A stretch of DNA of 64,000 bases from Curvularia clavata (GCA_023920165.1 CP089278.1:3162001-3226000), one strand, 5' to 3'. Shown: positions 7,646-56,372, numbered from the stretch's first letter. Made by a program: numbers and translations. Notes: generated by a model from the sequence alone, not told the origin.

Positions 7646-7978
7646 GCTGCGGTTATCGGATTTCTCCCGTATTGGGATATGGCTAGATCGTTTTCCTGCT
7701 GTTAAGCGTATGGTCTCGGCGGCCTACCGTGTGCGTGGTCTCACGTGCCCCTGTCATTGGTCAATCGCTTAACATGCAGACGGCTTACAGCTCCCGAGAC
7801 TGGCTAGGCGTTTATTCGTCGGGTAGATAAAATGTGATGGGATTAGACAGAATTCGCTTCATTTTGTTTTAACCCTAGACGTCGACTGCAAAGTAAAGGT
7901 AATTGGGCCGATCTTAAGAAACCGTCTTCATATCTGCCAAGCCATTTATCCAAACTTCACAGCATACACTCCCACACT

Positions 7979-23697: not shown

Positions 23698-24830
23698 GGC
23701 TGTGCCGAAAGAATTTGGTAATGTAGGAATTGAACTTAGTGATTCCACTCTAAAGCAGACAAACTACGGAAAAGCCGTGTTCGAGCGTATGAAGCCTTAA
23801 GTAGCAACCATGAGCGCCCCTATTGCGGCACAGCAGTGCAGCAGCTGCAAGGCTGAAACCTACCAAGAGCATAACTACAGCGGTTGATCAAGGATGACAT
23901 CAACTCTTCCTATTGGATCTCTCTAGCCATCACTTCTGCAGCTTCTACATTGGTTTTGCTTGCGGTCAATATATATATGATGGTCCAAGCGAAGAATAGA
24001 ATGAGAGTAACTGATAGTATGGTCGCAAGCCAGCTCGCGCAAGTGGTAGAGAGTATATTGTCACATGCCGCGCGCTGGACGCAGCCCAACCGTATGAGGT
24101 TTCAGGTATTACTGCTTTGAATTAGCTCTGATCCTTCCACTGTTTAGAACTAAACCAAAGCAGCGCATCTTGCAGTCGTTTGCAATATCCGAGCGCCACA
24201 AGATGTAAACACTATCTTCATCACATAAGTGCAGGCAACTTAAACAAACGACGTTACGAGAACATGTCTTCAACTTTATCAGACAACAGCAAGATAGCGT
24301 AGCAGCTTCCGAAGACGAAGCAAATTTAGGGGATACTTGATACAATTCGCGCTGATCATCTATAATCCAACAGCCGGCTAAAATCAGTTTGGCATAGGAC
24401 ACCCAATCAGAGGAGCACCTTAACCGCCACAACAAGCCGCGTTGATCTTTGTGACTGCAATTTCGATAAGCTGGTTTACTCGGAACGGGATTCCGCAATC
24501 CAAGAGGCACAAACACATTGCCAAATTTTCGTGGTGTGTTGACATGAGAAAATAGGTCCCCCCATACTTTACAAGCTCTACTACACTAATCGACCCAATT
24601 GTCTTACCTAAGAAGAGCCAAATCTAGGTCAGCAAGGAGCTCGTTGTTGCCAGCAATCAGTAATATGAAAATGCGGCTTGTTGCAGCAGTAGACATTGTT
24701 TGCTATTTAATTCTGAGAATTTGGTGCGGTGAACTCCTTAATGGTGAAGTGTATAATTCGTGCGAGAAGGGATCGGCGCTGCCACAAGCGCGGACGTATT
24801 TGGAGCACCGGAAGTTGTGCGTTGGTTCTA

Positions 24831-26557
24831 CTCGCCCCACAGAGCCTAGTTCTGCCGAACTAGGCCCTACCCAGCTCAACGTCAACCACCAGCTCAACGT
24901 CAATTTTGCTAACCTATGCGATTTATATCGTAAATTAGCCGCGAAAACATGCGAAATATTATATATTTGCTATAGCTACTGAGTGTGAGGTGTCTCCTAG
25001 TATATAAAATGTATTACTTGTGCCTGTTAACTTGGTGTTAAGGCCTCTGCAGAGGCAGGTGTTGGCTGCTGGGTGGCATCTTGGAGGCGCCATCTTGTCT
25101 CTCTTATAGCCTTACGTATAGCCTTTTGCTTAGCGATCTTAGCTTTTTGAGATATAGCCTCCCGCGCACCTCTAGCTGTAACTACACCTCCTTTCTAAAT
25201 CGTTAATCGCGAGTTATCCTAGCGCTAAGCCCTCTCGCGGGCAGCAGCTGTAGTCTTGGCAAGCTCACAAATCGCAAGATTATAGTTTAAATCTAGTATA
25301 ACTAACGCTCTAGCAAGTCGCGCAGCCCAATTACTTAGTATATTCTTAGTATAATTATAGAGCTCTTACGTTTTACAAGCGTACGCAACAAAGGAGCGAG
25401 GAGTTGTAGGCGTAGACGTCTCAGAGGCTTGAAAGAGATAGCTTATCTCTTCGGGCGTTAATACTCTCTATAGGCGCGCGAGCTTATACAATACTCTCTT
25501 AGGATCCTATAGCCAGACGCCTACTAATTCAAAGGCTTTTTAAATAGTACTAGATTTAAATATGTGTCTTCTAACGCTATTAATTGCGTGTAGAAACTCG
25601 AGCTTGTTGAAATTGGTATAGCCCTCGCGAGCAGCTCTCTCAACGACGCCTCTGTAGTGCTTCTTATATACTTAAAAAACACTAACATTAAGAGGCTGCA
25701 GGTTGTGAGAGGTATGGGAGGGGAGCGAGAAAAGTACTATGTTATTGTCGTCATAAAAATCGATCAGCTCTTTTGTGCTATGGGATCTAAATCCATTAAA
25801 AATTAATAGCCTCTAGGTGCCTGTTTGATGGCGACGACTATAGGCGTCAAAGTATCGAATCCACTTGAGAGAGAGCTCGTTGTTATTATACGCTGTCTCT
25901 GAGACAGCTACTATGTAGTTGTTAGGCAAGTTTGTATTAGTGTACCATTTTGAGAGGTATGCTTTGCCCTTAAGAATAATGAATGGTGCCAGAACTGAGC
26001 CGTTAGCAGCAACAGTCTCAACGACTATAACAGACTCGCGATTTGTATTAGACGGTGACTGTATAGCGTCATCATCGCCAGCCATTATGAGATCCAGTTT
26101 TTACCTATAGGTGGTGCCTTACCATCTAGATGCTCAAGATCAAGAATCCGCTGCGCGGCAGAAATCAGCTACAGTATAAGAGGAGGCATATATAACGCGT
26201 TGCAGCGAGTAATATAAGCCTTTAGAGTATTCTTCTATTATTAATTAAATCTTCGATTTAGTATAGCGCGCTCTATTTTTAATATATAGCCTGAGACGCG
26301 CTTTTAGAGCCTGCTATAGGGTATATAATTATAGTCTACTGCTGCGCGCATATTTGCGTAGATACTACTATCTAACTCGGTAATAGCAATTTCAATACGC
26401 TCTTCAATCTGCGCGTAAGTCCCAAAGCGCTGCGACATGTTGTTGTAGAGAAAAATCGAGTCGAAGTGGTAGGGGGTAGCAAAATTGACGTTGAGCTGGT
26501 GGTTGACGTTAAGCTGGGTAGGGCCTAGTTCGGCAGAACTAGGCTCCGTGGGGCGAG
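24831..26557 (-). mobile_element. RIP-inactivated Fot1/pogo-type DNA transposon with both TIRs and TA target duplication
   Basis: About 80-bp TIRs (CTCGCCCCAC...CCTAGTTCTGCCGAACTAGG...2x CCAGCTCAACGTCAA) flanked by TA at 24829-24830 and 26558-26559. Stop-riddled transposase fragments MSQRFGTYAQIEERIEIAI, NRESVIVVETVAANGSVLAPFIILKGK, LPSHTSHNLQPL. Confidence 0.92.
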
Positions 26558-26567
26558 TAGTCTACTA

Positions 26568-28358
26568 AGCTCGGGCATATACTTTCCGGCCACATATGGT
26601 TTCCGGCCACCCCACCCAAAGTAGCCACTCAACTCAAACTTGTGATTTTTCCAACACCACGCTTTCAATATGGATCCACGGGAGCTTGCTATACAAAACG
26701 CTATCGCAGATCTCAATTCTGGTGTTTTTAAAAGTGAGCGGGCAGCTGCAAGTTGGCATAAAGTCCCACGATCGACGCTACAAGGCCGTCGCGCAGGCCA
26801 ACAACCACACGCGATAGCTCACCAAAACCAGCAGCGATTGACTCCAGAGCAAGAGCAATTTCTAGTAGAGTGGATACTAGAAGAAGACTCACGCGCACAG
26901 CCGCCATCTCATCCACGCGTTCGAGAGATGGCTACTAGAATTCTACGCATGAACGGCGACTGCCAACCACTTGGACAACTATGGGTATCTCACTTTGTTG
27001 CCCGTAACCCACGCGTCGCGTCGATAGTCGGCCGAAAGATTGAGAGCGTGCGTACTACTGGTGCCAACTATGAGACTATTAAAGCCTTTCTTGAGCTATT
27101 TGAACGTACGCGCATAGAGCTAGGCATACAGTACGAAGATATATGGAATATGGACGAGACTGGAGTCGCGCTAGGGGTATGTACGAACGCTAGAGTGCTT
27201 GCAAGCTCTTCAAAGAAGAAAGCTTACGTCAAGTCTCCAGAGGATCGCGAGTGGGTGTCAGTTATTGAGACCGTCTCCGCCACAGGCGCCAAGCTCCAGT
27301 GCCTAGTTATCTTCAAGGGCAAGCATCTTCAAACTACGTGGTTTCCAGCTACTAGTACACCAAATTGGCTATATACTACGTCAGAGAATGGGTGGACGTC
27401 GAATTCGATTGGATCTGAGTGGCTACAGCGGATTTTTATACCAAATACTGCGCCTACAAGTGGTGGATATCGACTACTCCTTCTTGACGGCCATGGCTCC
27501 CACACGCCTATTGACTTCATGTGGCTTTGTAAGGTGAATAGGATCCAGCTACTATATCTTCCTGCGCATGCCTCTCACTTGCTGCAGCCGCTAGACTTAG
27601 CTCCCTTCTCTGTACTCAAGTCTCGCTATCGTAATCAGATTCAAGCTCTCTCAGCACTTGACGACGCAGCGCCAGTAAAGAAAGAGTGCTTTGTTATATC
27701 ATATAACAAAGCTAGAGAAGAAGGACTATCAGAGCGTGTTGTTAGAGCTGGCTGGAGAGCTGCTGGGCTCTGTCCATATAACCCAGACATTGTATTACTC
27801 TCGTCTCAAATAACTGGCCGACCAGTTACTCCGCCAGCCGCCCGTCAGGCCCAAGATCTACCAGAGCAAGTCTTTAATACCCCTCGGAGCTCACAGGCTC
27901 TACATAAGACCCAACAGCAGCTGCTGCTGTCAGAATCTCTCTCACGAAGCACCCGGCTGGTGCTTAGCAAAGCAGGTAAGGCTATTGCGGAGGCAAATAC
28001 CAGAGCTGCCCAACTTGAAGCTCAAAATCAACAGCTTAGATATCAACTAGATAGCTACAAGATTACTCGCGTAAGAAAACGAGTTCAAGTTAACCCAAAT
28101 GAACGCTTTAGTAACGTTGAGAGTATTAAGGCTGCTATTGACCGAGCAGCAGCTCTACAGGCACAACAGGCAAATATTTCAACTGAAAAAGCAGCTGAAA
28201 AAGCAGCAGCAGAAGCGGCAGCGCTTACTCTTAGCTCTATGTGTAATGAGTGGCAAATATAACTGTTGTTGTCGAAGAAATCGCGACTTTGAGTTGAGTG
28301 GCTACTTTGGGTGGGGTGGCCGGAAACCATATGTGGCCGGAAAGTATATGCCCGAGCT
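26568..28358 (+). mobile_element. Intact Fot1/pogo-type (Tc1/mariner superfamily) DNA transposon
   Basis: About 70-bp TIRs starting AGCTCGGGCATATACTTTCCGGCCAC; TA at 26566-26567 and 28359-28360; intact transposase ORF. Confidence 0.96.
26670..28262 (+). CDS. Pogo/Fot1 DDE transposase, 530 aa
   Basis: HTH N-terminus, IWNMDETG, LLLDGHGSH, LPAHASHLLQPLD. Confidence 0.95.
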   Translation: MDPRELAIQNAIADLNSGVFKSERAAASWHKVPRSTLQGRRAGQQPHAIAHQNQQRLTPEQEQFLVEWILEEDSRAQPPSHPRVREMATRILRMNGDCQPLGQLWVSHFVARNPRVASIVGRKIESVRTTGANYETIKAFLELFERTRIELGIQYEDIWNMDETGVALGVCTNARVLASSSKKKAYVKSPEDREWVSVIETVSATGAKLQCLVIFKGKHLQTTWFPATSTPNWLYTTSENGWTSNSIGSEWLQRIFIPNTAPTSGGYRLLLLDGHGSHTPIDFMWLCKVNRIQLLYLPAHASHLLQPLDLAPFSVLKSRYRNQIQALSALDDAAPVKKECFVISYNKAREEGLSERVVRAGWRAAGLCPYNPDIVLLSSQITGRPVTPPAARQAQDLPEQVFNTPRSSQALHKTQQQLLLSESLSRSTRLVLSKAGKAIAEANTRAAQLEAQNQQLRYQLDSYKITRVRKRVQVNPNERFSNVESIKAAIDRAAALQAQQANISTEKAAEKAAAEAAALTLSSMCNEWQI

Positions 28359-28991
28359 TAATAGTATTGCCGCAAATGGTTGTGGGGCTTGGCACTGCGG
28401 CCGCAGTTTCCGCAACCAAAATCTACTGTATCATGTACAAAGATTTGAGGATAATCATAGCAGCCTGATTATTCCACGCCTAATTCTGAACAATATGAAC
28501 TATATATCTTGTGAATTAGTTGATATTAATTCCAATGATATGCCGATTAGGTTTTCTTATAGGTCAATACAGATTGTCTAGCTTAAAAATCAATGACCAA
28601 TGCGATAATTACTCACTATTAACGTTAGAATGCTGGGTGAGCATAGGAAATTCGACGTGGTGCAAAGACTATTCACCCATTTTTGCGCCTGATAGATGTG
28701 GAGATATTGCGCATGTCAGCCGCTGCAGTTTCAAGCCACTCGCAACCCTGGTCACGGCCGCAGCAACCGCACGTCACTCCATTGGTGATGATGGTGGGTA
28801 AGCTTACAAGACCTGCAGGATGCTTATGAATATGTTTTCAGAAGGTGTATTAAATGGTGTGAGCTTCTTCGTATCTAGCACTTTTGCGATCCATTCCAAG
28901 CTCAATTCAAAGTCCCAATATTTCTCACTACTCTCAACCAACTCCTTCAAGTTCAACTCCATACAACTTCCATCAGTCTTCAACCAACAAT

Positions 28992-36649: not shown

Positions 36650-39600
36650 CTACTTCGATGTTCTTGATGCGCCCCTTTTTAGTAGCAATGTCGCGACTTC
36701 TTGGTGGCCGCTTCGTAAAGCCACCTGGAGTGCATTGCCATAAAGCCCACCCTCCGCGTTAACGTCAGCACCTCTGTCTAGCAGTAGCGTCACAATCTCT
36801 TTATAGCCTCTATCTGAAGCTATACAGAGCGCGTTGTCATCGGATCTGCTCTGTGCGTTGACTTTGGCACCTTTGTCTAGCAGCAGCGTTACAATCTCTT
36901 TATCACCTCTCGCTGAAGCTATACCAAGTGGGTGGCCATAAAGCCCGCCCCGCGCATTGATGTTGGCACCCCTTTCTACCAGCAGCGTCGCAATCTCTGT
37001 ATAGCCTCCATCTATAGCTGCGTAGAGTGAATTGTCCTTGTGTCCACCTTGCGCGTTAACGTTGGCCCCTCTGTCTAGCAGCAGCGTTACAATCTCTTTA
37101 TGGCCTCTATCTGAAGCTGCATAGAGTGCATTAGTATAGTCTCCACCCTGCGCGTTAACGTCGGCGCCTTTGTTTAGCAGCAGCATTACGATGTCTTTGT
37201 GGCCTCTATCTGAAGCTGCATAGAGTGCATTAATATAGTCTCCACCCTGCGCGTTAACGTCGGCGCCTTTGTTTAGCAGCAGCATTACGATGTCTTTGTG
37301 GCCTTCAGTCGAAGCTGCCTGAAGTGCGTTGCCGTAGTCTCCGCCCTGTATGTTGACGTCGATACCTTTGCCTAGCAATAGCGTTACAATGTCTTCGTAG
37401 CCTTTAGCTGAAGCTCCCTGAAGTGCGTTGCCGTAGTCTCCGCCCTGCGCGTTGACGTTGGCGCCTTTGTCGAGTAATAGCATTACAACATCTTTATGGC
37501 TTCCAGATAAAGCTGCCTGGAGCGGGTTGCCGTAGATCTCACTCTGCGCGTTGATATCAGCACCTTTGTCTAGCAGTAGCGTCGCGATGTCTTGATGGCC
37601 TTCAGCTAAAGCCGCATGAAGTGCGCTACCCAAGCGTCCCTGTGCGTTGACGTTGGCGTCTTTGTCTAGCAACAGCGTCACAATCTCTTTGTAGCCTCCA
37701 TCTGAAGCTGCATAAAGAGCATTGCTGTAGAATCCACCCTGTGCGTTGACGTTCGCGCCTCTCTCTAGCAGCAGCGTTACGATGTCTTTGTGGCCTTCAG
37801 CCGAAGCTGCCTGCAGTGCGTTGCCGTAGTGTCCGCCCTGCGCGTTGACGTTGGCGCCTTTGTCTAACAGCATTCGACTCAGAACACTCGCTCCCTTCTC
37901 TGCTGCTACATACAGTGGCGTTCGGCCCTTTGCATCGTTTGAGTCAAGGTTCAAGTTCCCTAATCCGATCAAATAGGAACATACGGCTACACTACCCGTC
38001 TCCACTGCAGGTATGAGTATCCCTCCCTTTCTAGAGTATTTGAAGTCGCGGCCTAGACTTTTTTCTATCTTTTCATGTCGAGAGTTTTCTTCAAGGAGGC
38101 TCCAGCCATGGTCAGCCTGTGACTGAGCGGCTTTGAGGCCTTCAATACATGCCTGCATGGCCTCCTGGCCTCCAGTGGCATTGGCTGCGAAGAAGGCGCA
38201 ACCGTAACGTTCTTTCTCCACATATAGACATGAAGTGACAGAATGGTGGGCCCTAATCAGGTTTGCCATGTTAAGCTCGGCAAGCAAATATAGCAGATTG
38301 ACACGTTCAGTGTGTCTCCGCGTTTCAAACTTCTCAAACAGGTTGTCAAGCTTCACCCATCGAGGAATAGGGAAGCTGTCAAGAAAGCACGCTTGAGAGA
38401 TGCCTCCACCTTCTGCCGTGTCTGCATGATACAGCACATTGCGGACGGCATACTCTAGAAAAGGAAACTTCTGGGTTGCTAATTTGCGCAGGGCAGCTGC
38501 CTGTTGCGAGGAGGCTTTTGCAAGCTTATCAGGAATTTCTAATCGCATGACAACGTCAATGCTCATATAGTCGAGACAGTTTTGCTTTAGCCGTTCGTGG
38601 CTCTGGTTTTGGAAATTGCTTCCCAACTCGGGCCAGATCTTGCCGAGGCCGTTTTCTTTAAGCAGAAAATCCCTTACTGACTCGTGGATGAACTGAACCC
38701 TCGGCTCTTTGGAAACGGTGGCTTCAGCGAGGCCTTTGGAAAAGTCGAGGATGAACCGCTTAATGTCGTCCCTTGTAGTCTCCTCATAGTCTAATTTGAA
38801 GATAGCTTCAGAATTGATGTTCAGAAGAAGAGCGTGATAAAGTTGCTCTGGACTAAGCGGCTGCTTCGCGAAGAGCACCCACTGGATGCACAGCACCAAA
38901 ATATCCTTATTGCGCGAGTCTCGCGTTAGAATGTCGCTGAACAATTTGTGCAGGTCCCCAGGGATTGCCTTCAATTTCTCTCGAAGCGCAAAAATCTGCC
39001 CACGATCGAACTCTGTGTTCAAGATTCCCACGACGAGAACAACCCACATGAAGATCCCTGATGATTTCTCCTGAAGCTCAGCCCGGATTTGCTGTGCGGT
39101 CTTACTCTTCCCAATTTTCAGCTCAGTCTCAACGTAGTTGGTGATATCCTGCGAGTGTCCCTCCTGCCCTTCTAACACGAGCTCTAACCCGTTCCGGATT
39201 GTGATGTGTGGGTAGTGCCTACTCGAGAAGCATACCTGGAAGCGGATGCCGTGTGACACAACTAGGTCGCCGATGTGCTCGAAGAACTGGACCATGTCCC
39301 GAACCTGGTCTTCTTCACACTCGTCAAGCGCATCGATAAAGCATATGACAGAAGAGTCTTCCAAGCTCTGTACTGCTTGCTCTAGCAGTGTCTTCAGCGT
39401 CTCGGTGTTCCACTGGTAATCTTTGGTGAATTTTGAGGTTGAGAGGCTGAGCGAATCAAAGATGCTCCAGAGCGCGGGGAGACGGTCTAGGAGCTGTATT
39501 AATAGCGAACGGTATGTCCCGATTGTAGATTTCTCGATGTCCTCGCCGCGCGCGTTGAAGAAGAAGGAGAGTATGGTGTAATCCTTCATTGCCTTGCGAG

Positions 39601-41135: not shown

Positions 41136-41904
41136 TCGGGGCTGTTACGAGGGGAAGAAAGAAAGGAAAGATACCTGCTAGGGTCCAATGTATGCAGATA
41201 GAAAGAAGTAGAAGTAGAAGTAGAAGCAGTCTAGCAGCAGCAGCGCTGTCGACAGTTGCTGTCGCTTAGCCTCAGCCTTGCCTGCCGCCTACATATTGGC
41301 ATGGTGGATACTCAGTGTTATGATTGGACCAATTGGGGCGCAACTGTAAGCGCTGAGTAGCTGGTAGCGAGGCAGGATCAGATCCTTCATGGGTTATTCA
41401 CCCATGGCCTGCAGTCATCAGAGCAGGCTATGATGTGGCTTCACTTCGTCTGATAGAGATCATCTGTGATCCGCAAAAGCATAGCACATAGCCTCATTCC
41501 TACACAAGAGCGGAGAGTGAAGTGAAGTGAAGTCACAGTCTATTCTAATAATGCAGGGGAAGGAGAAAGCTGTTATCAACCCGCTACAGGGGAGTGCTCA
41601 GCCCGGTTAATGTCCCTTGCCAGGCTGAGCTGCGCCGCACTGCGCCGCGTAGCACTACGCTACGCCACTCGCGCGTCAGTCAGGAGTCGGAAGCCAACAG
41701 AACAAGCCCTAGTTGCCTTGAACAACATCATGGCCATGGAGACCTGCTCACTTCTCAAAGATGAGCAACATGCTAATATGCGCGACGATTTTAGTCTCTA
41801 CGAAGCACACAAGACTAGGCTGCTTAGGGTAGACCTAGGGACACGGTCGCGGACCGACCCGTCCTAGCACTAGCTCTATGAGTACTTCGGGCCTTTAGGT
41901 ATTA

Positions 41905-43766
41905 ACGTACCTCACGGGTTCGCGGTCCACACGGGTTCGCGGTCCACTTTTGCCAAGACCCCACCAAAACCACCACATTATGGCCTAATACAGCCCAACC
42001 TTGGCCAGTTTAATGCAAAAAAACATAAAATACTATTCAGAGCCTACTTCTGCTTCATTCTTACACGTTCGCGCGTTATGCCCAGTCCTATTGCACCGTC
42101 CACACCGCCGTTGAGACGGTTCACCCACTTCAGCGCGCTTCTGCTTCTTTGACTTCTTCCCATCACTACGCACCCCAAAGTCCTGGAGAGCAGTCAAGCG
42201 CGCCCCATCTTCAACTGTTAAGGTCCCCTCTGCCTGAACCCGCTTTCTTTTGTGCGATTTTCGTCGCGTGGCGGCTGCGTTAGCTGCTTCAAGCTCACTA
42301 ATCCGTTTTTGTGCCAACACTAGCTTATGCGCGATAATAGCTGCCCCCTTTGAGACCTTCTCAAAAGCCTCCACCATAGACGTTGGTGAGCTGTCTAGGT
42401 GCCTCTGAATCCTCTGCTTCACTAGCGTCGATTGCGACCCTATTTCAAGGGTATTCCTCGGGGTTTGCGACAGCCAGGGCTGGGTATCGACAGGTAGGGG
42501 TGATGGAGTGCGCAACTGGACATTAAGGGCGGATATGACCCGTTCTGGGTCAAATGGGACCAATCCAGCGCCTCGAAACCCTCCTTGGACATTGCTAGCT
42601 ATAAATGATGCGTCAAAAGCCCGCCTAAAGCAAGGTAGGAACTCTTGTTTGGTGATGTGGTTGATCTGGGTGCGCATGAGCGATTCGACTTGGCGCCCAT
42701 AGGCCTGCTTTAAAGGGGCAAAACAGCCCACATCAAGCGGCTGTAAGAGGTGAGACGAGTGTGGAGGCATGCAAAGAGTAACAATTTTGTTATCTTTGCA
42801 GTATTTTTGGAAATCCAGCGAGTTGTGGCTCTCATGGCCGTCAATAAAGAGTAGACGGTGGGTACCTACCACCTTCTTCTTTGTATGCTCATCAAAGTGC
42901 TTTAGCCACGCAAGACCAAGCTCATTGGTCGTCCAGCCGTTCTCAGAGACTCCAATAACCCAGTTCTGGGGTATATCTCCATCTTTGTACCAGCTTGAGA
43001 GGTGGTGGCGCGCCTTAAGTATGATGAAGGGCGGAATCGTCCACCCGGTCGCATTGATGCCCTGGATAACCGTCGCCCACTCTCTATTGCCAGGCTGGAT
43101 AGTCTTTGGCCGTCCACGTCTCTCTGAAGCTGTAACAACTGCTCCAGGGGTAATCTGGCCCATCATAAAGCCTGTCTCGTCAAAGTTGTACGTGTCGTCA
43201 TCTTGGATACCATACTTGGCTTTCATATTGGCTACTAGGCCAAACCAGTCTTGAATAGCCTTAGGATCCTCACAGAGTGCTCTCTTGTAGTCATACTTGC
43301 GATTAAACTTTACTTTAAGCTCAGGGCGGCGCTTAACGAATGTGCTGGGCCAGTTTTGGCCAACCTGGCCCAAATTGCGCTCAGCGCGCAAGGAATTGGC
43401 CATATTAGCCACATCTGCGAGCCTAGGGGGAAATCCACGTGAACCAAGATCAAGAATATGCTCAACAACCACCTCCTCCTCAAGCTTAGTTAGATTCATT
43501 GTTTTAGGCCTGCGATCTGCTTGTGAATCCCGTCCGTCGCGTCTTTGACGTAGTGTTGTTCGAGAGACGTTATAAAGAGCTGCAGCGCGTCGTTCTGAGA
43601 GATTCGCGTCCTGTTTGAGAGCTTGAAGAGCAAGCTGTATTTGACATTCACTAGAAGGCTGTAACTGCTGTTGTTGTTGTAACATTTGTGGGTAGTAGGT
43701 ATTTTGGTGGGGTCTTGGCAAAAGTGGACCGCGAACCCGTGTGGACCGCGAACCCGTGAGGTACGT
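41905..43766 (-). mobile_element. Intact Fot1/pogo-type DNA transposon (termini resemble, from memory, the Molly element of Parastagonospora nodorum)
   Basis: TIRs ACGTACCTCACGGGTTCGCGGTCCACACGGGTTCGCGGTCCACTTTTGCCAAGACCCCACCAAAA; TA at 41903-41904 and 43767-43768. Confidence 0.96.
42033..43721 (-). CDS. Pogo/Fot1 DDE transposase, 562 aa, with C-terminal CCHC knuckle
   Basis: YNFDETGF, FIDGHESH, MPPHSSHLLQPLDVGCF, CGRCNRTGHNARTC. Confidence 0.95.
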   Translation of the reverse strand: MPRPHQNTYYPQMLQQQQQLQPSSECQIQLALQALKQDANLSERRAAALYNVSRTTLRQRRDGRDSQADRRPKTMNLTKLEEEVVVEHILDLGSRGFPPRLADVANMANSLRAERNLGQVGQNWPSTFVKRRPELKVKFNRKYDYKRALCEDPKAIQDWFGLVANMKAKYGIQDDDTYNFDETGFMMGQITPGAVVTASERRGRPKTIQPGNREWATVIQGINATGWTIPPFIILKARHHLSSWYKDGDIPQNWVIGVSENGWTTNELGLAWLKHFDEHTKKKVVGTHRLLFIDGHESHNSLDFQKYCKDNKIVTLCMPPHSSHLLQPLDVGCFAPLKQAYGRQVESLMRTQINHITKQEFLPCFRRAFDASFIASNVQGGFRGAGLVPFDPERVISALNVQLRTPSPLPVDTQPWLSQTPRNTLEIGSQSTLVKQRIQRHLDSSPTSMVEAFEKVSKGAAIIAHKLVLAQKRISELEAANAAATRRKSHKRKRVQAEGTLTVEDGARLTALQDFGVRSDGKKSKKQKRAEVGEPSQRRCGRCNRTGHNARTCKNEAEVGSE

Positions 43767-44265
43767 TATATAACTACCTATAATTATATTGTATGCTAAT
43801 TATCTTCTTTAATAAGCTTATAATAGTTCTAGTCCTCTACTAACTGTAAGCTCGCAATAGATAAAATAATAGCTTAAACGGCAACCTAAGCTTTACATAC
43901 GACGATAGAGATCTCTTAATTTTAATCGCGCACTCGCGTATAATTCAGACTCTATTATTAAGTAGTTTAATACCTTTATAAGTCTAATTTAGACGTATAG
44001 TATTCTACTATTAGATATTTAGAACTTTAATGAGACTAGCTTTCGTATTAGAATTAGAAAAGACTAGTAGATTATTACTTTTAAACCTCGCCGCCGCGTC
44101 TATCTGCCAACGCCTGATAATTGTATATTATTAACTATTACTAAGTATATTAATGCCGCAGGCTACGCTATTCTACTAATAATTATTGTTAAAGGCGACG
44201 CACTCCTTAAGCGCTACTTCACCGATTTATCTAATAACTACTTTATTGCGTATAGCGACACTAGC

Positions 44266-45126: not shown

Positions 45127-45386
45127 CTAGCTACATAAATAATCGATTAAGTTTTGAGTAGATAAAGCACTTCGTATAATAGAGCTAAAAGCATATATAA
45201 GGGTTGTATCGACTGCTTTTATTTAATAGATTTAATTTACACTACACCTAAGAGTTTCTCAAAGTCCTTAAGGATTATAAAATTATTATCTATTGCCTGC
45301 CTCTATATACATCTCACTTTCTCTAACCGCTTAATATAGGCTGTTTTCAGCCGTATAAGTACTGGCACGCGCAGGCTATTAATTAT

Positions 45387-45595
45387 TGTTAGACTGTTAG
45401 TGGCGTGAAGGTACAGCACGAGATAGATGAGAGAGAACTATGCTTTAACAGCCATGTATTCACGAGACGAATCGCTATCGAGCACCTCTAGCGATCGTGG
45501 AGGCTTTATAGCCTTAGGTAAGCCCTAGCTGACTAACTAGCGTGAAGAAGGAGGGAATTGGACTAATATGTCCTAATTTGGACTAGGTCCTGACA
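45387..45595 (-). repeat. 3' LTR of the Gypsy element
   Basis: TG...CA ends; 6 transition differences from the 5' LTR. Confidence 0.95.
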
Positions 45596-46188
45596 ATACC
45601 TCCCTTCTTAGGGTGCAGCTGTCCCAGCTGCGCAACTTATCATACTTGCCGCCCAGTTTGAGCGATTACTAGGTGATGCCGCCGTGTGGGTTGGAGGGTG
45701 TATTTTACTTGCTCACCGCCCTAGGGCTATGACGTCATAATAGCGGAGTTTTGCGCTGCTGCCTAGCCGACTGCCCCACTTTGGGCCAACCCGGCCCATT
45801 AGGGTACTCCTGGGCAGCGCCAAGAGTCACGTGACGCGCTAATTTAGTGCGGATCCAGGGATACAATAGCCAGTTTTTGACTAAGCCTAGTACACCCCAC
45901 AGTCCACCAACCCCACTTTGGTAAGTAGACTCCCATTTTGTGGGTCTTCTCAGTTTGGGCCCGACACCTTCCACCTACGGTCTGTTTGCAATAGTTTGGC
46001 CCAATTTGGGCCAGTTTGTAGTCGACCTTGGTTTTATTGCCTTTTTCTGAGGTTCTTCCCCTGGACTTGGAGTTTTCTGCTAACTTTTCTTTTTAGGCTA
46101 TTTCCTCCTATACGATCTATTTCGCGATAGATTCGACTAATTCGTCCCAAACACCCCTAAATTGGGGCTTTTAAGACCCACTTGAACC

Positions 46189-47254
46189 ATGACGAATGCA
46201 TTTGGATCCGTCAACCGCAGTACGGTGTCAAACTTGTTTATACGTAAGGGCCAGAGGTCTTACTACGCTTATGTGTGCTGTTTGAACGCCTCTAGGGATA
46301 ATAAGCCTGTTACTTTTGGCAGAGCGGGTTGCGTTATGTTAGATATCGACAATCCTGAGGTAGCTGAGACTTGGTCTGGCTATAAGGTTGAACCGGAGTC
46401 TGGCGGTATGCCTAGGTAGGTGATGAAGTGTCTTCGCTGCTCTTACATCAACCGTGTCTGTTTTGCGGTAAGTTGCCCTATTTTGCTCTGATTTGGTCTA
46501 ATTTGGAGCTAAATGAGTGGTTAGGTGCCTCCTCCTGACAAGTTCTCCCCCGACTAGATGAGACTTAGCCAGCTTATTAGGAAGGTTGAGGATGCCTTCT
46601 ATGCCATTAATAAAGATATCCCTAAAGGTGCTAATAAGGCTGAAGTTCGTACTGAGCGCAGGGAAATATACGAGGTGGCTGTTACTAGACTTAGTATATT
46701 CAGTAAGTCTATTATTAAGTTACTTAAGAAGTAAGTAATCTAATTTTTCTAAATCTAGCCTAAATTAGACTAATTTGTGTAGGTTTAAATCTTATACTAC
46801 TTATCTGTCTCTTTCCTCTAGTACTATCGAGGAGGAAGATGATCCCCGCTCTAGTGTGAAGACTTCTGCCCTTGGCCGCTCTAAGAAGGATGAAGAGGTC
46901 AAGAGGAAGGCTTATAAGATCGAGATAGAAACTTTAGTTAAGGTAAGGGTCAAGAAGTCTAAGTATGGCTCTAGTAGGCGTAAGAAGGAGGTTTATAATT
47001 CTTTTCTCCTCTATTTACGCTAAATTGCTCTAATTTAGACTAACTTAGTTCTTTAGGTTAAGATTGCCAAAAATATTACTAATGAGCTTTAGAAGCGTAT
47101 TAATAATATTAATAAAGAGATTTTATAAAAAATGTCTAAGAAGGAGGGGGCTAAGGGTTAAGCCAAGAGGAAGATCACTAATAACATCAAGAACTTAGAA
47201 AAAGCCAAAGTAAGGCTTAATAAGGAGTACGAGGCCGCAGTTACTAGTAATTAA
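46189..47254 (+). pseudogene. Antisense, 3-intron accessory gene inside the Gypsy element (about 296 codons; Cys-cluster N-terminus, Lys/Glu-rich helical C-terminus), RIP-inactivated
   Basis: Exons 46189-46467, 46525-46730, 46783-46990 and 47057-47254; introns of 57, 52 and 66 nt (GTAAGT, GTAAGT, GTTTAT ... CTAA branch ... TAG). One frame across all junctions; internal stops are only TAG/TAA. Confidence 0.8.
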
Positions 47255-50200
47255 GGGTGGTTGGGTCTAGTTTTTGTAACGGCGCGAGCAAGACTAGTCG
47301 AATCGGTTCCGGTGGGAAGTGTCACTCAAATGCATATGGAAGTGCGTGGGACAGCAGAAACACCTTGGATTCGGTAGACACTCATAGGCCTGGTACGAAA
47401 GGATATCAAAAATCTACCGAACATCTATGGAAGGTACCTGGTACTTATACCTGGGTGCGGGTCTTCATCGGGTCTGACCCGGCTCTCAATCGGATCTTGA
47501 TAAGCTGCCCTGGCTGGGGTATGTTTTGGTCTATGCATGGTTACAGTTTTGTCCGTTTTGGCCTAAATTAGGTTAGTATAGGCTATGGTGGTTTTCTTCC
47601 CTTTTATATGAGATACCTAAGGCATTAGGATAGAGGTGATAATTGAAATTCTCTTTTCTTTACTTTTCTATTTCTTAGTTTTTGTTATGTAATGTCAGTT
47701 TAATATAGACTAATTTGGGCCAGGTTGCTCTAATTAGCTTATGCCGTTAAACACTTATAAAACCTTTTGGGGAAAAAAGTAGGTGAAGGTATATATGCTA
47801 ATTTGGCTCCTATTGGCCCTATTTGGCCCGTTTTGGCCCGCGTCTGCGTTGAGGGACCTGATTTGATTTGTTCTAGAACTCTTGAAGCGTTTTCTGGGTA
47901 ATATTGGCGGCTGGCTTCTATATATTTTTAGAGTTGGGGTATCTAGTCTATTTTACTAAGTATTCCCACTAATCGTTCTTGTTCTTTCTATGTCCCACTA
48001 TTTTGTCCACGAGGTAGACATCGTCGCCTGTCTCGCCTAGTTCGTGTTGTGTTGGGACTTTAGGATGTGGTATATCATCTGGGGGGTGATACTGCTCTAG
48101 TAAGGATGTATGGAACACTGGGTGTACGTTTTTTAGGCCAGGCATATCTACTTTAAATGCTGATGGGCCGATTTGCTTAGTTATTGTGCCTGGGCCAACG
48201 TATTTCTAGTCGATTTTCTTCTTTGGTTGTAGGGATTTAATATGCTTATTAGATAGTAGTACTTTATCCCCTATCTTAAAAGGAATAGGTTGTCTTTTGT
48301 TATCTGTGTGCTGTTTTTAGTACTTTTGCGCTTTTAGAATATTATTCTTGCACTCTTATTATATTTCGATTATTCTTGAGGTAGTATTTGCCGCTAGGGG
48401 GTTTTCGCCCCTAGTTTGGGCGTCTTTGGGCTATTCTGCGCCTCTTGGGTGTATGCCGTTGTATGCTTGGAAGGGGGTGACCTTGGTAGTCGAATGTACA
48501 CTGTTATTGTACGCGTATTCCCCTACTGAGATCTATAATGCCCAGTCGTCCTGCTCTAGGGAATAGTAGCAGCGGAGGTACTGTTCTAGAGTCTAATTTT
48601 GGCGTTCAGTCTGGCCATCTGTTTGTGGGTGGTATGCCGAAGTAAGTACACGTTTTGAGTTAAGGTAGTAAAGAAAGGTCTTCTAATGGGTAGAGTTTAT
48701 TAAAGGGCCTCTATCTGATATGATTTGGCGTGGTACGCCATAGAGACGGATTACTTTGCGCAACCATGCCTGAGCTAGGTCTACTCCGTTCTAATTGGAC
48801 CGTGCTGGCACGTAATGGGCCATTTTGGTCAGTCTGTCGACTATCACGAGAATTACGTCGTATACTACGCCTTGTAGTTTGCTTGGTGGCAATTTAGTTA
48901 TAAAGTCCATTGTTACTTCCTCCCAGGCTCTATTAGGTGGTGGTAATGGTGTAAGGGGCCCGTATAGCAGGTGCCGTTTCGGGGTAGATTTTTGATAGAT
49001 AAGGTATGATTTGCAGTAGTCTTCCACGTCTTTCCTCATGCCAGCCCACTTGTAGTGGCGCGTTAGTTTCTCTAATATACGTCTTGCGCCAAAATATCCA
49101 GAAAGCGGGTCGTCGTGACCTTATTTTAATGCTGCTGCTTTTTCCTGTGCCGTCTTGGGCACGGTTGGGCCAGAGTGGCCCTATTTGAGCCTTTGTAGAC
49201 TTGGTTTGGCCACGTCGTCTTCTTCTAAGCTACATGAGTCCGAAGTGTATTCGTCCGTCTCTAAGTCGGCCTCTTGAGCCAATGCTGCATGCCTCTGGTC
49301 TTCATATTGCTTCACTGCTGTATTCTACCGTTCTTATAATTGTGTGGTGGTAGCTGCAGCTATAGCAGTCCCTTCGGCATTGAATTTGAGCAGATGGCGT
49401 AGCGATGGCACATATGCGCTATTATTCTTCTACTTTGGCTCTTGGGCGGCTTTTATGTAGTCGGGTCTGCGCAATAGGCCGTCGGCGGGGTTTGTTTTCC
49501 TAGATTAGTATACAATTATAAAATCAAAACCTGATAGGGCTAAGTAAGACCGTACCTGGCGGTGATTTAGTATTTTGGTTTCTATAAACCACTTCAGATT
49601 TCGATGGTCAGTAATTAGATCAAAGTATATCCCATCAAGATATCTTCGCCAGTGTTGGAGACTAGCGATGATAGCTAGTAGCTCTTAGTCATACGTGTTA
49701 TAGTTGTACTCCGCGGCGATTAATTTACGCGAGTAGAAGTCTACAGGTCTCTAGCAAGCCTTTTTGGGCACGTACTGGCTTAGGATGCCAGCAATCGCTC
49801 CTTCTAACGCATCAACCTATACTCTAGTCTGATTGTCTAGATTAAAGTGGGTTAGGATAGATACTGCTATAAAAGAGTTTTTTAGCGTCTTAAACGCGCT
49901 CTTAGCGTTTTCGTCTAGAATTAGCAGTACGCTTTCCTCTTTTCGCTGAGCTTTGCCCCCTTTGGCGGTGTTCGGCTCCTTTTTTAGTAACTTAGTTAAA
50001 GGCAGTGCGATTCTGGAGAAGTTAGTAATAAATCGACGATAGTAGTTCATAAAGCCTAGAAACACGCGGACATCGCGCACTGTACGCGGTTCTGGCCATT
50101 CCTAGGCCGTTTTGGCCCGATCTGGGTCGATACTTATACCCTCGGGGCTAACTGTGTAGCCAAGGAACTCAGTGTGTTAGATATGCCATTCACACTTCGA

Positions 50201-52784
50201 AGTCTTCAAATACAGCTTGGCTTCGCGCAATCTGTTTAAGACTTCGCGCATATATCTCTCGTGCTCCTCTTCTGTATTGGAGAACACCAGAATATCGTCC
50301 AAATACACAATACAACTCACATCTACCAATCCTGCAAGGATATAGTATATGTACGCCTAAAATTATGCAGGAGCGTTTGTAAGGCCAAAAGACATTATAG
50401 TATACTTAAAATGGCCGTATCTGGTGCAGAAGGCTGTCTTCCACTCGTCTCCCTTCTTAATCCTCACCCTATGATATGCTTCTCAGACGTCTAGCTTGGT
50501 ATAGAATTTTGCCTCAGCCAATCTATCTAAGGACTCCATAATTAAGGGTAAAGGGTGACGGTTTTTAAGCGTTATATTGTTTAGACCTCTATAGTCCACA
50601 CATAACCTTATTGTGCTGTCTTTCTTCTTCGCGAAGAGTATTGGTGCGCCTGCTAGCGATTTTAAATATCTAATTCACCCTCTCGCGAGATACTCACGTA
50701 AGTAATTCTGGAGTAGCGCTAACTCGCTCTTCGAGAGCCTATATAGCGGCTGATATGGTGGCGTGGTGCCTTCTTTTAAGGTTATCACCAAATTGTGCGG
50801 GCTATGCTTAGCAAGGCACTTGGCATCCTCTTCCAAGGCCAAATCCGCAAAGTCCTCGTACTATGGTGGCAACTAAGACAACTTGGCTTGATCAGGGCTA
50901 ACTTGGGCGTTCTTAGGCTTCTCCAACCCCTCCCAGTCCTCTTCCTCGTCGCTTGGGTCCCAACCCATTACAGTAGACACTTTGAGCGCGTAAACGTCTG
51001 TTATGGGCGTTTGGAGTATTTTCTTAAACTTTTTGGCGCTTTCTATCGCGATTTTCTTATATAAAGCCCTATCTATATATTTTACGCCTCTAAATAGCAC
51101 TCGACGCGATTAGAGGCTTATTTTAGGCTTGTAGAAGTCGACTTAAAGCATATCTAAGTATACTAGATAATGCTTCATTTCTATCACTATAAAAGGTATA
51201 TTCTAGAATTTAGTTCTCTCTCTTGTGTCTATAACTTTTATAGTCACCTCTATAGTACTATAAATCTTAAACTCCGCGCCGCTTAAGGCTTCTACTACTA
51301 AGTTTGGTATAGGAGTTATTGTTAAATCGTGATCCTTGGCTTAGTGGATTGAGAGTAGATTTAGTTGAGACCCTCTATCTATTAGCGCTTTGAGTAGATC
51401 TTAGCCAATTTGCACTATTATGGTCAATAGTGGGCTAGGTTTGCTAAACATTGCTTCGCGAAGTGTCTTCAAGTCCTCTTCTAGCTCTAGTCTTGTAATA
51501 TAGGCGGAGAGTAGGGCTACTAGGTTCTCCGCCCTTTATCTTTTTCTAGTTTGGGTTCTTTAGGTGCCGCTTGGCTTTATTTGTGCTTACTATAGTTCCT
51601 ACTGATGTGTCTGGGTTCCCCGCAGTTGTAATAGACAATTTTGCCCTCTACGTCGCGTCCTCGAACCTTGTTTGCCGCGTATGAACCTTTTATATCCGTA
51701 GGGTTCTGTCTTTATTTTTTCAGGATTTTTTCGTACTCTCTTGTGTTCTTTGGTGGTGTGCCGCTCCTAGCTTGCTTGTTCTGCGTTGTTCTAGCGTTGC
51801 TAGGCTTCTCTCTTTTCGTTCTGTCCTAGATAAGTCGCGCTCGCGCGTTTAGGTCTGAGATTGTGCTTCTTTGACCTGGTTCGAGTAAAAGCAACTCTTT
51901 TTATATTATCATTGTCAAAGCGCCTATAAAGTCCCTCACTCTCTGCTCTTCCGAGTAGGCATTGCCCAATTCGGACCAAAGTGTGTCCAATTTGGCCAAC
52001 AGGTCGTTTAGGTCCTGAGACCAGTCCTGTCTGATGTGTTTGAGAGCTCGGTGGGCTTCAAGCTTCCGCTGTTCTGGTGGTCCCAGTGAATCCACCATTA
52101 TAGTCTTCAGGTCTAGCCACGTGGGTGTCCAATTCGTGTCTTTTCTACAGTAGTCGTGATAATAGGCGTCCTATATAGAGCGTAGGGGGTCAGTGATATA
52201 CCTAAGCCCAAAATCGATCTTGACTGCCTCTATTTGGAACGTTTTAGGGCTTCCCCTAAATGTTGCCTCACATTCGCGTTCCTAGCGATTGTACTCGGCA
52301 CGATCGCGGCTTATAAACTATATTGGTTTTTCTAGTTATGGAGCTCCCACGTTTGGTTCTAGTTGTATCTCCACCGCACGGTGTGGTTTATATAGGTCCT
52401 CTGTCAGTGCTGTCGTGTCACTTTGGTCGAACCGACGCTTGATTTTCTGGAGACGTTTCAGTTCTTGCTCGTCAAGCGCTCGTTGCCTCTAAGCGCGCAG
52501 TTCGTCTAGCTGTTGAGCAATAGTGGTCTGAGGTGGTTCAAGTCGAGCTGGGCTGCCCTGAATTGGGCTTCTCTGTGCCAGTTCGGCCTGATCTGCCTCC
52601 GTGACGGCAGGCTCGGATAGTTCACTTGAAGATGGCTGGGTTGAGTCTCTAGTTAGAGTGGGCTGTGAGTCCCCTACTACCGTGTTTCGAGTTGACCTTG
52701 GGCGGCTCCGAGTTTGGCGACTACCTGGGTTCGGCATGGCTCTCTCTGACATCTCGTAGGTGTACTTGAGGAGAGCGATTCGAA

Positions 52785-52993
52785 TGTTAGACTGTTAGTG
52801 GCGTAAAGGTACAGCACGAGATAGATGAGAGAGAACTATGCTTTAACAGCCATGTATTCACGAGACGAATCGCTATTGAGCACCTCTAGCGATCGTGGAG
52901 GCTTTATAGCCTTAGGTAAGCCCTAGCTGACTAACTAGCGTGAAGAAGGAGGGAATTGGACCAACATGTCCCAATTTGGACCAGGTCCTGACA
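52785..52993 (-). repeat. 5' LTR of the Gypsy element with TATA box
   Basis: Copy of 45387-45595; minus-strand TATAAA at 52903-52908. Confidence 0.95.
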
Positions 52994-53928
52994 ATTATGT
53001 AACCTGAACAGGCTATACAGCTTTTAATAAGGTTAAGTTTCTAGCTGCTATCGAGTTAATCTGCGCCTATATATTCAAGTCCTGTATGATATAAAAAGGC
53101 TGGCGGGACTTAGGATTATATCTATTAGATATTAAGCGTATTAAGAATAATATATAGAGAGATTTTGCTGATTAGAACGCTAATTGCCAAGATACTGGTA
53201 GTAGTAGTAGTGATAGTAGCAGCAACGCTACTATAGATAGAACACTACTACCACCAGAGCTAAACACGCCTCTAACGATCCGGATACTTAAGCGCAATAT
53301 TGACTATTATCTAGAGAATGAGGAGCTTAGCGATAATGTAAAATATACGTTATTTAGAGCGTATAATATGTCTATTGCTGGAGACTAAGTAATTAATAAA
53401 CTACGTACTATAACTTCGATTGTATAACTACGGCGATTATACTAATAAAGGACTTGTATAATTCTTAAATCTTTAATAGAAGTTATTTACTCCTATTTAG
53501 CACGAAAGATAGTTTAAAATAAGTTTGTAGCTAAGTTAAGCTAGCTTATATTTGAATATTTAAAGATAAAGGGTATACTAGTTATAAAAAAAAAGTAGCA
53601 TTTCTAAGCTTACTAACTAGTATATAAACAATTATAGCGGGTATAAGTATTAATGCGTATTATAGGTTTACTAGTGTACGAAAATTAGTACGAAAACTAG
53701 TATAGTTAAGTAGCAATTTGATAGTTTATTAAAGGTAGTTGAAAAAATATCGTATTGAAGGTAATATCGTATTAAGGGTCGGCACTCGCCTGCGGCGAGT
53801 GTCAGCGCAGCTGACGTAGCTTAGTCATAAGCTACGCCTTGGCACGGATAACCTACTCTTTCCCTACCACCCACCATGCACGCTCGCGTGCCAAGGATAA
53901 AGACTTGCCAGATCCCATCTTGACTGCT

Positions 53929-56372
53929 ATGTTCAAGCAAGCCCGGAGCCGAGGTACGTGGCTGCCAAGCCGTTGATGCTAAGACACCGCGACTAACTGC
54001 GGTCCTGCAGACGGCTGCGGAGCCTGCAGGCAGAAAGTACGTAAACCAACACCGCCGTCCGACCTTATCCTGTGCAAGGACAAGCTGACATTAGCACCCT
54101 TCCAGCGCATCAAATGCGATGAAACCCGGCCCCGGTGTCGGAACTGTCAAGGGCGCAATATTCAGTGCCCCGGCTTCGCCCGCCAGTTGCGATGGAAGAC
54201 GACGTCCCTCACCTCAGGAGCTGTCCGTAAACATCCGCGCAAGACGCTGGCCATGCAGCAAGCGACGGCTCAATCCCTAAGCCCGGATCCGTCTACTTCA
54301 CAGCTCATAGTCATTGGCCAAAATTGGCGACAGCAGCCGACTATGCAAGGCTCGCAGACCAACGCGCATGACAGCTCTTTCATTCATGATCACGTGTCGT
54401 TGCCTTCCCCGCCCCTCGCAAGCGCCAGTCGTTCTCAGACAAGCACCCTAGACCCGCATCCCGCTGGCGCCAAAGAGAGTGAGCAACAGCACGAGGTCAA
54501 TTTCACCTCAGCCACATCCGTGCTGGATACTGCTGTCTCGCAACCCGTCACTCCGCAGAGTTCCACAGAGTGTGGTGACTCTCTGAATCAGACCGAGATT
54601 ACTTCCCCTGTGGGAGTCTTAGCACACGAGTCTTCTTCCCCACACACGGCAGAGTCAACTGAGTACGTGCTTTCCCAGGATACGCCGCCTTGCGTGTCAG
54701 CCTCTTCAGAGAAGACGAGAGACAGTGGAGGAGATCAGCACCACAATCTGATGCTTGGCGATATCGACCCCGTGCTTGAGCTGACTTCTAGCGATGCTTG
54801 GCTGTGTAGCATCGAGCAGCAATCTGGTGACGACTCGGACTTTGATATATCTGCTGTGACAGCACAAGTTGGCCAGCAATGTGTCGATTCTGATAGCCTT
54901 GTCTCGGCGAGTGCATCGTGGCAGCGCAACATCTGGATAGATGCCGAAACCGAGAACAACTTGACAGTACACTACTTTGAAAACATTTGTCAGATGATGT
55001 CGTGCTTCGACTCTCGTCAAAACCCTTTCCGCAAAGACATACCGCGGGTAATGCTCACTTGCGAATACTTAAACGACTGCATTAAAGCTCTGTCTGCAGC
55101 ACACCTGGCGAATTCAATTTGCGGTATGGACAACATTGCCGTAAGACACCAGACAAAAGCAATGCGTGGGCTCATGTCCGTTCTTCAAAAGCTACAATCT
55201 CCAAGTCGCCATGGCAGTAGCGACAATGAGCTCTCACGCTTGTCGGTCACGTTCACACGATACCAAGCCTTGTTAGCTGCTCTGCTACTTGCAATTAGCG
55301 CGGTAAGAACAAAACCCAAGTACACGATAGTTTTCCGAGACTAATACATTGTAAGGCTTGGGTTGATGCTTCAACAATTGGTTTGGCCCATTATCATGGC
55401 GCGAAACTGCTTTTCCAGGCATGGTTATCCGACGAAGGAATCCACGATACGCTAAAAGAGTCTGTTATACTAGATCGTGAGCAATCCTTCATCGTAGGTG
55501 CGATGGTATATCTGGAATGCCTAATATCCATAGTCACCAATCAGCCTATGGAATCGCTACAGTACTTGCTGCGTTTTGTTACACTTTCCCAAGAACAAAG
55601 AGTATATCCTAATCCCTACACAGGGATTAGCACCCCTCTGTTCATCTACCTAGCTAAAAGCGTTACGCTTATCAGACAAAAGCGGAATCTGATACCTTGG
55701 GAAGAACGCGGCTTTAATCTCGATCTTCAGATATCCAGAAGCGCCAGGGAACTGTACCTACTCGTCTTAGCTCATCGTCCTCCTTTGGTAACATCAGTGG
55801 ATGACACTCAAGATGAAAATACCCCTCTCACCCATCTATTCGCCATGGACACAATACTGCGCCTAGTAATATTGTTAGAGCTTATGCAGGGTTTCCCCGA
55901 AGTCGTCATATACGATCACCCCACACGTGAAGTGCGGCAAACAAGCCTAGACCTCGCCATCGCAGTATTGACTATCATATCCGACCTGCCCGAATCATCT
56001 GGTACGAACATCATGCTATCTATTCCCCTTCTGTCCGCAGGTAGCGCATTGCAACCTATTGAAAGCACTCCAAGGAATATCCATCAGGGTTACGACCTCA
56101 GCTCCAATTGCCTCGACGCGCTCTGTGGCCAAATAGCTGCTTTGATGCACCGTCCTGCCACGCTTCAAATGTGGCGGGATCAAGTGGCATGGCGTGTCGA
56201 GCGATTGTACTGTCGCGTTAGCGTAGCCTCAGTAAAACGGATAAGCGCAATTTTGGAAGCTGTCTGGCGTCAAGCAGACGAAGCGAGTAATTTTGGCACA
56301 TGTGCATCAGCCACTATGGTCCATTGGATGGACGTCATGATCGAAGGAAGACTGGAAACGCTGTTTGGTTAG
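53929..56372 (+). CDS. Zn(II)2Cys6 transcription factor with Fungal_trans_2-type C-terminal domain (3 introns)
   Basis: Spliced MFKQARSRDGCGACRQKRIKCDETRPRCRNCQGRNIQCPGF...; HYFENICQMMSCFDSRQNPFR, ALSAAHL, PNPYTGIS, WMDVMIEGRLETLFG*. Confidence 0.9.

Follow-up and report, generated by a model that had tools for sequence, protein, structure and literature searches.

The window analysed here is a stretch of 64,000 nucleotides from Curvularia clavata (GCA_023920165.1 CP089278.1:3162001-3226000), read on one strand, 5' to 3'. On its minus strand lies a Ty3/Gypsy chromovirus with RIP-type mutation (45387-52993), bordered by the target-site duplication ATTAT (left 45382-45386, right 52994-52998). 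The LTRs, a direct repeat of about 210 nt with 97% identity at 45387 and 52785, are each 209 nt long (3' LTR, 45387-45595, TGTTAG...CCTGACA; 5' LTR, 52785-52993; both minus strand) and differ at six places, all transitions. The polypurine tract AAGAAGGGAGG (minus-strand reading, 45599-45609) adjoins the 3' LTR and is kept in L001, a related element on a metagenome contig. Reverse transcriptase, RNase H, integrase, SH3 and chromodomain of pol are found in a single minus-strand frame, 47741-51709 (Pfam: RVT_1, E 5.6e-32; two RNase H families; Integrase_H2C2; rve; SH3_Tf2-1; Chromo), whose 1323 codons include 44 stops (TAG or TAA in 42 cases). Gag, with the remnant of a CCHC knuckle, occupies the minus-strand frame 51502-52794 and has 11 stops in 431 codons, all TAG or TAA. 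TpA/ApT is 1.38-1.58 in pol and in the parts between pol and the LTR, 1.24 in gag, and 0.92 in the whole window. The Chromo match stops near 47870 rather than at about 47830, where the initial annotation of this DNA had placed the end of the pol chromodomain; from there to the 3' LTR a gap of about 2.2 kb remains.

Two further features of the element may be recorded here. Gag and pol are in different frames (region about 51100-51700), and some other copies skip 51085-51149 (joint 51084>51150), which may represent a programmed frameshift or an indel. In one contig each of two public runs (X1 and X2, see below) position 45381 is joined to 52994 with five ambiguous letters, resembling an empty target site; X2 also contains the element copy of the window letter for letter, and the joint may reflect either an insertion polymorphism or a duplicated target region.

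The gap between chromodomain and 3' LTR holds a plus-strand gene, antisense to gag-pol, with four exons and three introns located exactly where the initial annotation had drawn them (46189-47254). Exon 1 (46189-46467; 279 nt, 93 codons) carries the ATG and the six-Cys domain, with a TAG at 46417 and a Tyr at residue 28, which is Cys in homologues. Exon 2 (46525-46730; 206 nt) contains a TAG at 46555, the Lys/Glu-rich part begins in exon 3 (46783-46990; 208 nt), and exon 4 (47057-47254) includes the terminal TAA and internal stops at 47090, 47126 and 47159. Intron 1 (46468-46524; 57 nt, phase 0) and intron 2 (46731-46782; 52 nt, phase 2) both have a GTAAGT donor, CTAA and a TAG end; L001 has the same site for the former and a phase-2 counterpart of the latter. 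Intron 3 (46991-47056; 66 nt) is a candidate based on its splice signals, a weak donor GTTTAT, CTAAC and TTTAG. GT donor, CTAA and TAG acceptor, which had been claimed for all three introns, are present in each, and the single frame of about 296 codons said to run across the junctions is there as well: the exons total 891 nt, that is, 296 codons plus the terminal TAA. From these signals, and from conservation in one relative (L001), we infer that the antisense gene is spliced.

All five internal stops are TAG or TAA, as had been noted (TAG at 46417, 46555 and 47090; TAA at 47126 and 47159), and the window copy of the gene is dead: it cannot make a protein. After splicing, the two remaining sense frames contain 13 and 52 stops. 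A first-order Markov model matched to the composition of the spliced sequence was simulated 5000 times; stops averaged 25.5 per run (sd 4.7), with 8 as the lowest count and no run at or below the five observed. The stop density of the antisense frame (5/296) is not above that of pol (44/1323) or gag (11/431) in the same copy, as expected if antisense gene, gag and pol all still encoded proteins at the time this copy was hit by mutation. Since a frame on the opposite strand of the spliced sequence also has just six stops, the strand assignment is based on homology and splice signals and not on stop counts by themselves. The proposal that the stops are products of RIP stands for at least the first of them, since 46417 is C in all other copies and the codon aligns with Gln in homologues; the codon ancestral to the second (46555) is ambiguous, this stop lying opposite a Trp of L001 in one alignment and opposite an Asp in another.

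Contigs of four public runs (X1-X4; X1 and X2 under the same species label, X3 under another organism label) were aligned on 45300-53100. Those of X1 and X2 cover 30/30 bins of this stretch, and the related element L001 has the gene too; the segment thus belongs to the family and is not a one-off capture. Summed depth in X2 is 754-1105 over the gene bins vs 725-1203 over the pol bins 47910-51563, depth not being copy number. A high-depth contig of 1871 nt ties the last exon to the 3' end of pol, with 47011-47268 fused directly to 47545-49153. At the variant places of X1, 615/622 differences are transitions (A>G 188, T>C 220, C>T 87, G>A 120) and 7 are transversions; the excess of A>G and T>C in the other copies indicates that the window copy is the more mutated one. 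At least three places in the gene, among the best 40 of 1615 variant places, are such that all other contigs differ from the window: 46417, where T>C turns the first stop from TAG into CAG; 46369, where A>G changes Thr to Ala; and 46925, where A>G changes Ile to Val. Pieces of the gene are present in X3 at 80-90% likeness, and X4, a run guessed to be RNA, gave 7 short, diverged and partly fitting contigs on 45300-53100.

Between the stop of the gene and pol, the window carries a further insertion of 271 nt (47275-47545, TGTAAC...GTTACA), flanked by the target duplication GTTTT (47270-47274 and 47546-47550). Its summed contig depth is about 7000-8000 vs about 900 for the Gypsy element (~8x); ends, duplication and depth together identify it as a solo LTR of another, very abundant family. 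The joint 47268>47545 is found in X1, X2 and X3, where the solo LTR is absent from the other element copies, and 47275-47545 is therefore an insertion private to the window copy. Its TpA/ApT of 0.89 gives no RIP signature.

Exon 1, with X at its stop, was used as phmmer query against 1.84 billion representative proteins and gave 3 matches at E<=0.001, two of them real. These are P0001 (100 aa, metagenome; E 7e-19, 43% identity to exon 1) and P0003 (KAB2098925.1, a 309-aa hypothetical protein of Alternaria gaisen; E 1.7e-5, 33% identity). Judged by its sequence, P0003 shares the whole architecture of the predicted antisense gene product. The third match, P0002, is a repetitive protein aligned over just 30 residues and is taken as spurious. 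P0004 and P0005 came in addition from a look-up of clusters and a search by profile. In the databases the family amounts to three protein clusters. P0001, P0004 and P0005 end in ...CFAVSCP..., which is how the start of intron 1 (GTAAGTTGCCC) translates, and are therefore unspliced exon-1 calls. Word-index protein searches with exon 1 matched none of the longer proteins, and P0003 matched itself alone; a profile search of proteins of 51-541 residues, which depends on shared words, gave 3 proteins; 80 pattern matches in viral contigs included 0 relatives.

L001, a metagenome contig of 2189 nt, is laid out as the window is: LTR, polypurine tract, spacer, gene. Its LTR-like stretch (TGTTAGAC...CCTGACA, about 653-842) has the same ends as the window LTR and is followed by the same polypurine region, and the ATG lies about 730 nt beyond. 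Exon 1 measures 279 nt, identical in length to that of the window; intron 1 (1851-1912; GTAAGT...CTGAC...TAG) is at the window's site, in phase 0; exon 2 is 158 nt vs 206 nt in the window, both with remainder 2 modulo 3; intron 2 (2071-2127, phase 2) lies just ahead of a conserved motif, Y-x-P-[YF]-x3-L-x-L-x-S, common to the window, L001 and P0003. Similarity extends through exons 2 and 3. The spliced frame of L001 is open up to the contig end, and its TpA/ApT of 0.86 indicates that L001 is not RIP-mutated. With introns 1 and 2 at the same sites and in the same phases in this related metagenome element, the gene may be called a conserved family gene.

Upstream of exon 1, on the plus strand, are two candidate features. 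A candidate 5'-leader intron of 176 nt (45921-46096; GTAAGT ... CTAAC ... TTTTTAG) has a candidate counterpart in L001 at 1318-1503; GTAAGT, CTAAC and YAG are common to both. A CRE-like motif, a candidate promoter element, lies between the 3' LTR and the gene leader: TGACGTCA in the window (45730-45737) and TGACGTAA in L001 (1033-1040), with ATGACGTAA at the matching place of that contig. It is kept in both elements; the common form, ATGACGT(C/A)A, is upstream of the leader intron in each. We regard leader intron and upstream promoter motif alike as candidates suggested by sequence.

In each intron of the gene a 10-nt unit around TTGGSCC is repeated in short arrays, which in the window have the RIP-worn form CTAATTTGG; such arrays are also found in the leader and in the spacer adjoining pol. 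Period-10 arrays were reported by TRF in intron 1 (46469-46505), intron 2 (46749-46773) and intron 3 (47030-47048), and outside these introns at 45995-46018 and 47801-47839. In L001, repeat stretches of TTGGSCC are at 914-931, 1108-1125, 1866-1902 and 2099-2125; motif matches number 17 on the strand of the gene vs 5 on the opposite strand, 15/17 of the former are outside exons, and several are exactly 10 nt apart. CYAATTTGG occurs 10 times in the window vs 0.73 expected, 7/10 of these inside the element. The repeats are strongly strand-biased and are kept between two elements with 43% protein identity. It is conceivable, and in our view decidedly improbable, that the element encodes, in the protein with six Cys and long helices, a factor that binds DNA or RNA sequence-specifically at these 10-nt-phased TTGGSCC repeats (introns, leader, pol-side spacer and inner LTR edge). 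Through them the element would govern how much antisense relative to genomic transcription takes place, or label its nucleic acid as its own, and the introns would double as regulatory arrays.

The claim of a six-Cys pattern is upheld by the alignment, in which five Cys are invariant in 4/4 sequences and the sixth is present in 3/4. The spacing is C-x2-C-x16-C-x30-32-C-x2-C-x6-C, the first CxxC being residues 28-31, and K-C-L-R-C is invariant. The exception is residue 28 of the window, a Tyr (TAT) that is one G-to-A change away from TGT. The original de-mutated form of this part, SCHACVRR, has to be corrected: homologues read S-Y-Y-S-C-T-C-C, and only the third Tyr (residue 28) replaces a Cys. 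Nor does the spacing, 2-16-30/32-2-6, support the Zn2Cys6-like cluster that had been suggested. Pfam gave no family, Zn_clus included, for P0003, P0001 and P0004 at E<=10, and none for the window's own pieces of the gene at E<=0.01; the profiles DUF3716 (PF12511) and DUF8257 (PF26785) were likewise unmatched by the same three proteins at E<=10. Against the Zn_clus domain of the window itself (gene at 53983-55344), hhalign gave a probability of 0.3%. No PDB sequence match and no Rfam entry were found for the N-terminal domain and the gene.

The tail, which begins in exon 3, is basic and rich in Lys, Arg and Glu; the pI of the last 140 residues is 10.2 for the window and 9.95 for P0003. AlphaFold2 models are poor (mean pLDDT 50.9 for P0001 and 49.5 for P0003), and only the last helices of P0003 are confident (254-279 and 283-305; block means of pLDDT 85-89 over residues 261-300). 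The ESM Atlas gave feature scores of at most 0.76 with the whole protein and 0.84 with residues 1-95 as query, all structure TM-scores being below 0.4; the low-score leads (0.81-0.84) are clusters of ascomycete hypothetical proteins, of whose members 28-29% carry DUF3716 or DUF8257. In the literature, no paper was found connecting DUF3716 with a retrotransposon. Complex prediction for two copies of P0003 222-309 scored 0.00 vs a mark of 0.32. With models of this quality, zinc binding and fold are drawn from the Cys pattern alone: the N-terminal domain of about 90 residues with its six Cys probably binds zinc, and Cys pattern and composition together suggest binding of nucleic acid.

An established class of additional ORF in LTR retrotransposons, aORF-3R, as outlined in PMC7264820, comprises coding regions that run antisense to gag-pol in the interval from pol to the 3' LTR. 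Plant members named in the relevant passages are those of Grande (gene 23), RIRE2 and Retand, with TRP28 proteins (PMC7264820, PMC11963269); the non-plant example named in PMC7264820 is Boty of Botrytis and Sclerotinia, with brtn. This antisense gene of an ascomycete chromodomain Gypsy element is credited to Zhao et al. 2011, Virology 417:248 (PMC8365987, PMC7264820, PMC4227169); the name 'brtn' is absent from two supplementary text files of PMC8365987. DNA binding has been suggested for the antisense proteins of Retand, and in that element the same spacer is filled with tandem repeats (passages in PMC11963269). According to a figure legend in PMC2864245, certain Gypsy elements of fungi have an 'add. 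ORF' of unspecified function. Our search for literature on fungal LTR elements with antisense, Zn2Cys6 or additional ORFs yielded just the citations of brtn, this 'add. ORF' and the plant work.

The gene of the window has the position and orientation of this class, is present in other copies of the family and is conserved in the related element L001; it is a new member of the known class of antisense accessory genes in the interval from pol to the 3' LTR. With the plant aORF-3R, as these are presented in the passages cited above, it has in common the antisense pol-to-3'-LTR position, the family-wide presence, the short tandem repeats in the same spacer and a proposed nuclear or DNA-binding regulatory role; the plant elements differ in belonging to another kingdom and to the non-chromovirus Tat/Retand lineage. 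The fungal gene is also much shorter than the plant genes and is split by short introns, and the TRP28 profile (PF04195) is unmatched here.

HBZ of HTLV-1 is an antisense-encoded retroviral regulator, spliced, near the 3' LTR, with a helical and basic C-terminal part. It is touched on in general terms in PMC11963269. The likeness to the fungal gene is one of layout only (antisense near the 3' LTR, spliced, helical basic C-terminal part); there is no sequence relation, and the fungal protein has no bZIP match. To our knowledge, the function of antisense accessory genes of LTR retrotransposons has been established nowhere.

We propose, with a probability of roughly three in four, that 46189-47254 is a copy, killed by RIP-type mutation, of a third gene that a lineage of fungal chromoviruses (Ty3/Gypsy) genuinely possesses. 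That it is a real accessory gene, now dead in the window copy, we regard as highly probable. The idea of a separate, intron-bearing antisense gene of the element family, put forward in the initial annotation, is supported by the family copies, the related element and the conserved intron sites. According to this proposal the gene would be transcribed from its own promoter, within roughly 300 nt inside the 3' LTR. The splice signals of the introns would be present only on the strand complementary to the genomic RNA; since the genomic-RNA strand lacks them, reverse transcription would copy the introns intact and the introns would persist. The product's N-terminal domain, about 90 residues long, would have six invariant Cys and probably bind zinc; its tail would be basic and made of long helices, suggestive of a nucleic-acid- or chromatin-binding, possibly oligomeric, factor, which could regulate or assist the element, as has been proposed for the plant Grande and Retand antisense proteins. 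That the antisense gene product functions as a zinc-binding regulator is a tentative assignment, with the odds somewhat against it.

A gene in this position might also be an orthologue or diverged homologue of brtn, known from Boty-like elements of Botrytis and Sclerotinia, a reading that is compatible with the third-gene proposal and that we consider doubtful; if it holds, the family has already been described. In its favour are the shared position and orientation: in the passages devoted to it, brtn is reported as a protein-coding gene that lies antisense in the interval from pol to the 3' LTR, in a Ty3/Gypsy chromodomain element of an ascomycete (PMC7264820, PMC8365987, PMC4227169). Weak arguments against it are that no BRTN-named match was among the 3 matches of the profile search, which depends on shared words (proteins of 51-541 residues), or in the exhaustive phmmer search, where the query was the mutated exon and the output carries no names. 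The product could, alternatively, be a true member of the fungal Zn(II)2Cys6 (Gal4-type; PF00172) family with stretched loops, acting as a sequence-specific DNA-binding dimer. The spacing of that family is C-x2-C-x6-C-x5-12-C-x2-C-x6-8-C, and the likeness consists in six conserved Cys, a second half (K-C-L-R-C-x6-C) with the Gal4-like C-x2-C-x6-C spacing, and long C-terminal helices further on, as seen in the P0003 model. The first half and the linker are wrongly spaced, however (2-16-30/32-2-6 vs 2-6-5/12-2-6/8), and the helices begin about 70 residues past the last Cys instead of immediately after it; PF00172 is unmatched, at E<=10 for P0003, P0001 and P0004 and at E<=0.01 for exon 1 of the window, the hhalign probability is that given above, and a fungal-specific transcription-factor middle domain is missing. 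We thus hold membership in this family to be improbable.

The two remaining alternatives dispense with an element-encoded protein. If the conserved functional thing were an antisense RNA, or a 3' untranslated part of the genomic RNA, the frame would be incidental, and conservation outside the coding sequence (the first 15 nt of intron 1, the ATGACGT motif, the 10-nt repeats) would agree with this; amino-acid identities of 33-43% with invariant Cys, open frames in the un-mutated relatives, and the exon 1 length and intron phases kept in the relative speak against an RNA-only reading, which is very unlikely. A chance frame, or a fragment of a host gene captured once by the window copy, is more unlikely still: the low stop count of one reverse-complement frame is all that favours chance, to which the outcome of the simulations (0/5000) is opposed, and a single capture is at odds with the presence of the stretch in other copies and, beside LTR and polypurine tract, in a related element of another source.

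Antisense accessory genes being already known from plants, and from Botrytis through one 2011 paper, the third gene proposed here is a modest addition. It adds a protein family that is nearly absent from databases (two real relatives among 1.84 billion representatives) and that offers a clear Cys signature, conserved intron sites and intact relatives usable in experiments. Gene finders and repeat masking hide genes of this kind, the metagenome relatives having been called as unspliced exon-1 fragments that run into intron 1. An element-specific regulator, if that is what the product is, would be a fungal counterpart of the retroviral antisense regulators. As the copy in the window is dead, the finding has little practical consequence for this stretch of DNA.

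Other features were observed elsewhere in the window. A host gene for a Zn2Cys6/Fungal_trans_2 transcription factor (53983-56372, plus strand) lies about 1 kb from the 5' LTR of the element; it consists of two overlapping open frames, 53983-55344 and 55299-56372, which points to an intron or a frameshift near 55300. A diverged tandem array with a period of 99 nt and about 72-76% identity between units (36669-37872) probably encodes repeat domains. Inverted repeats of 75-98 nt with 92-97% identity bound each of three units that measure about 1.7-1.9 kb (24828-26560, 26562-28364 and 41896-43776), two of them side by side; these units are candidate DNA transposons or foldback elements.
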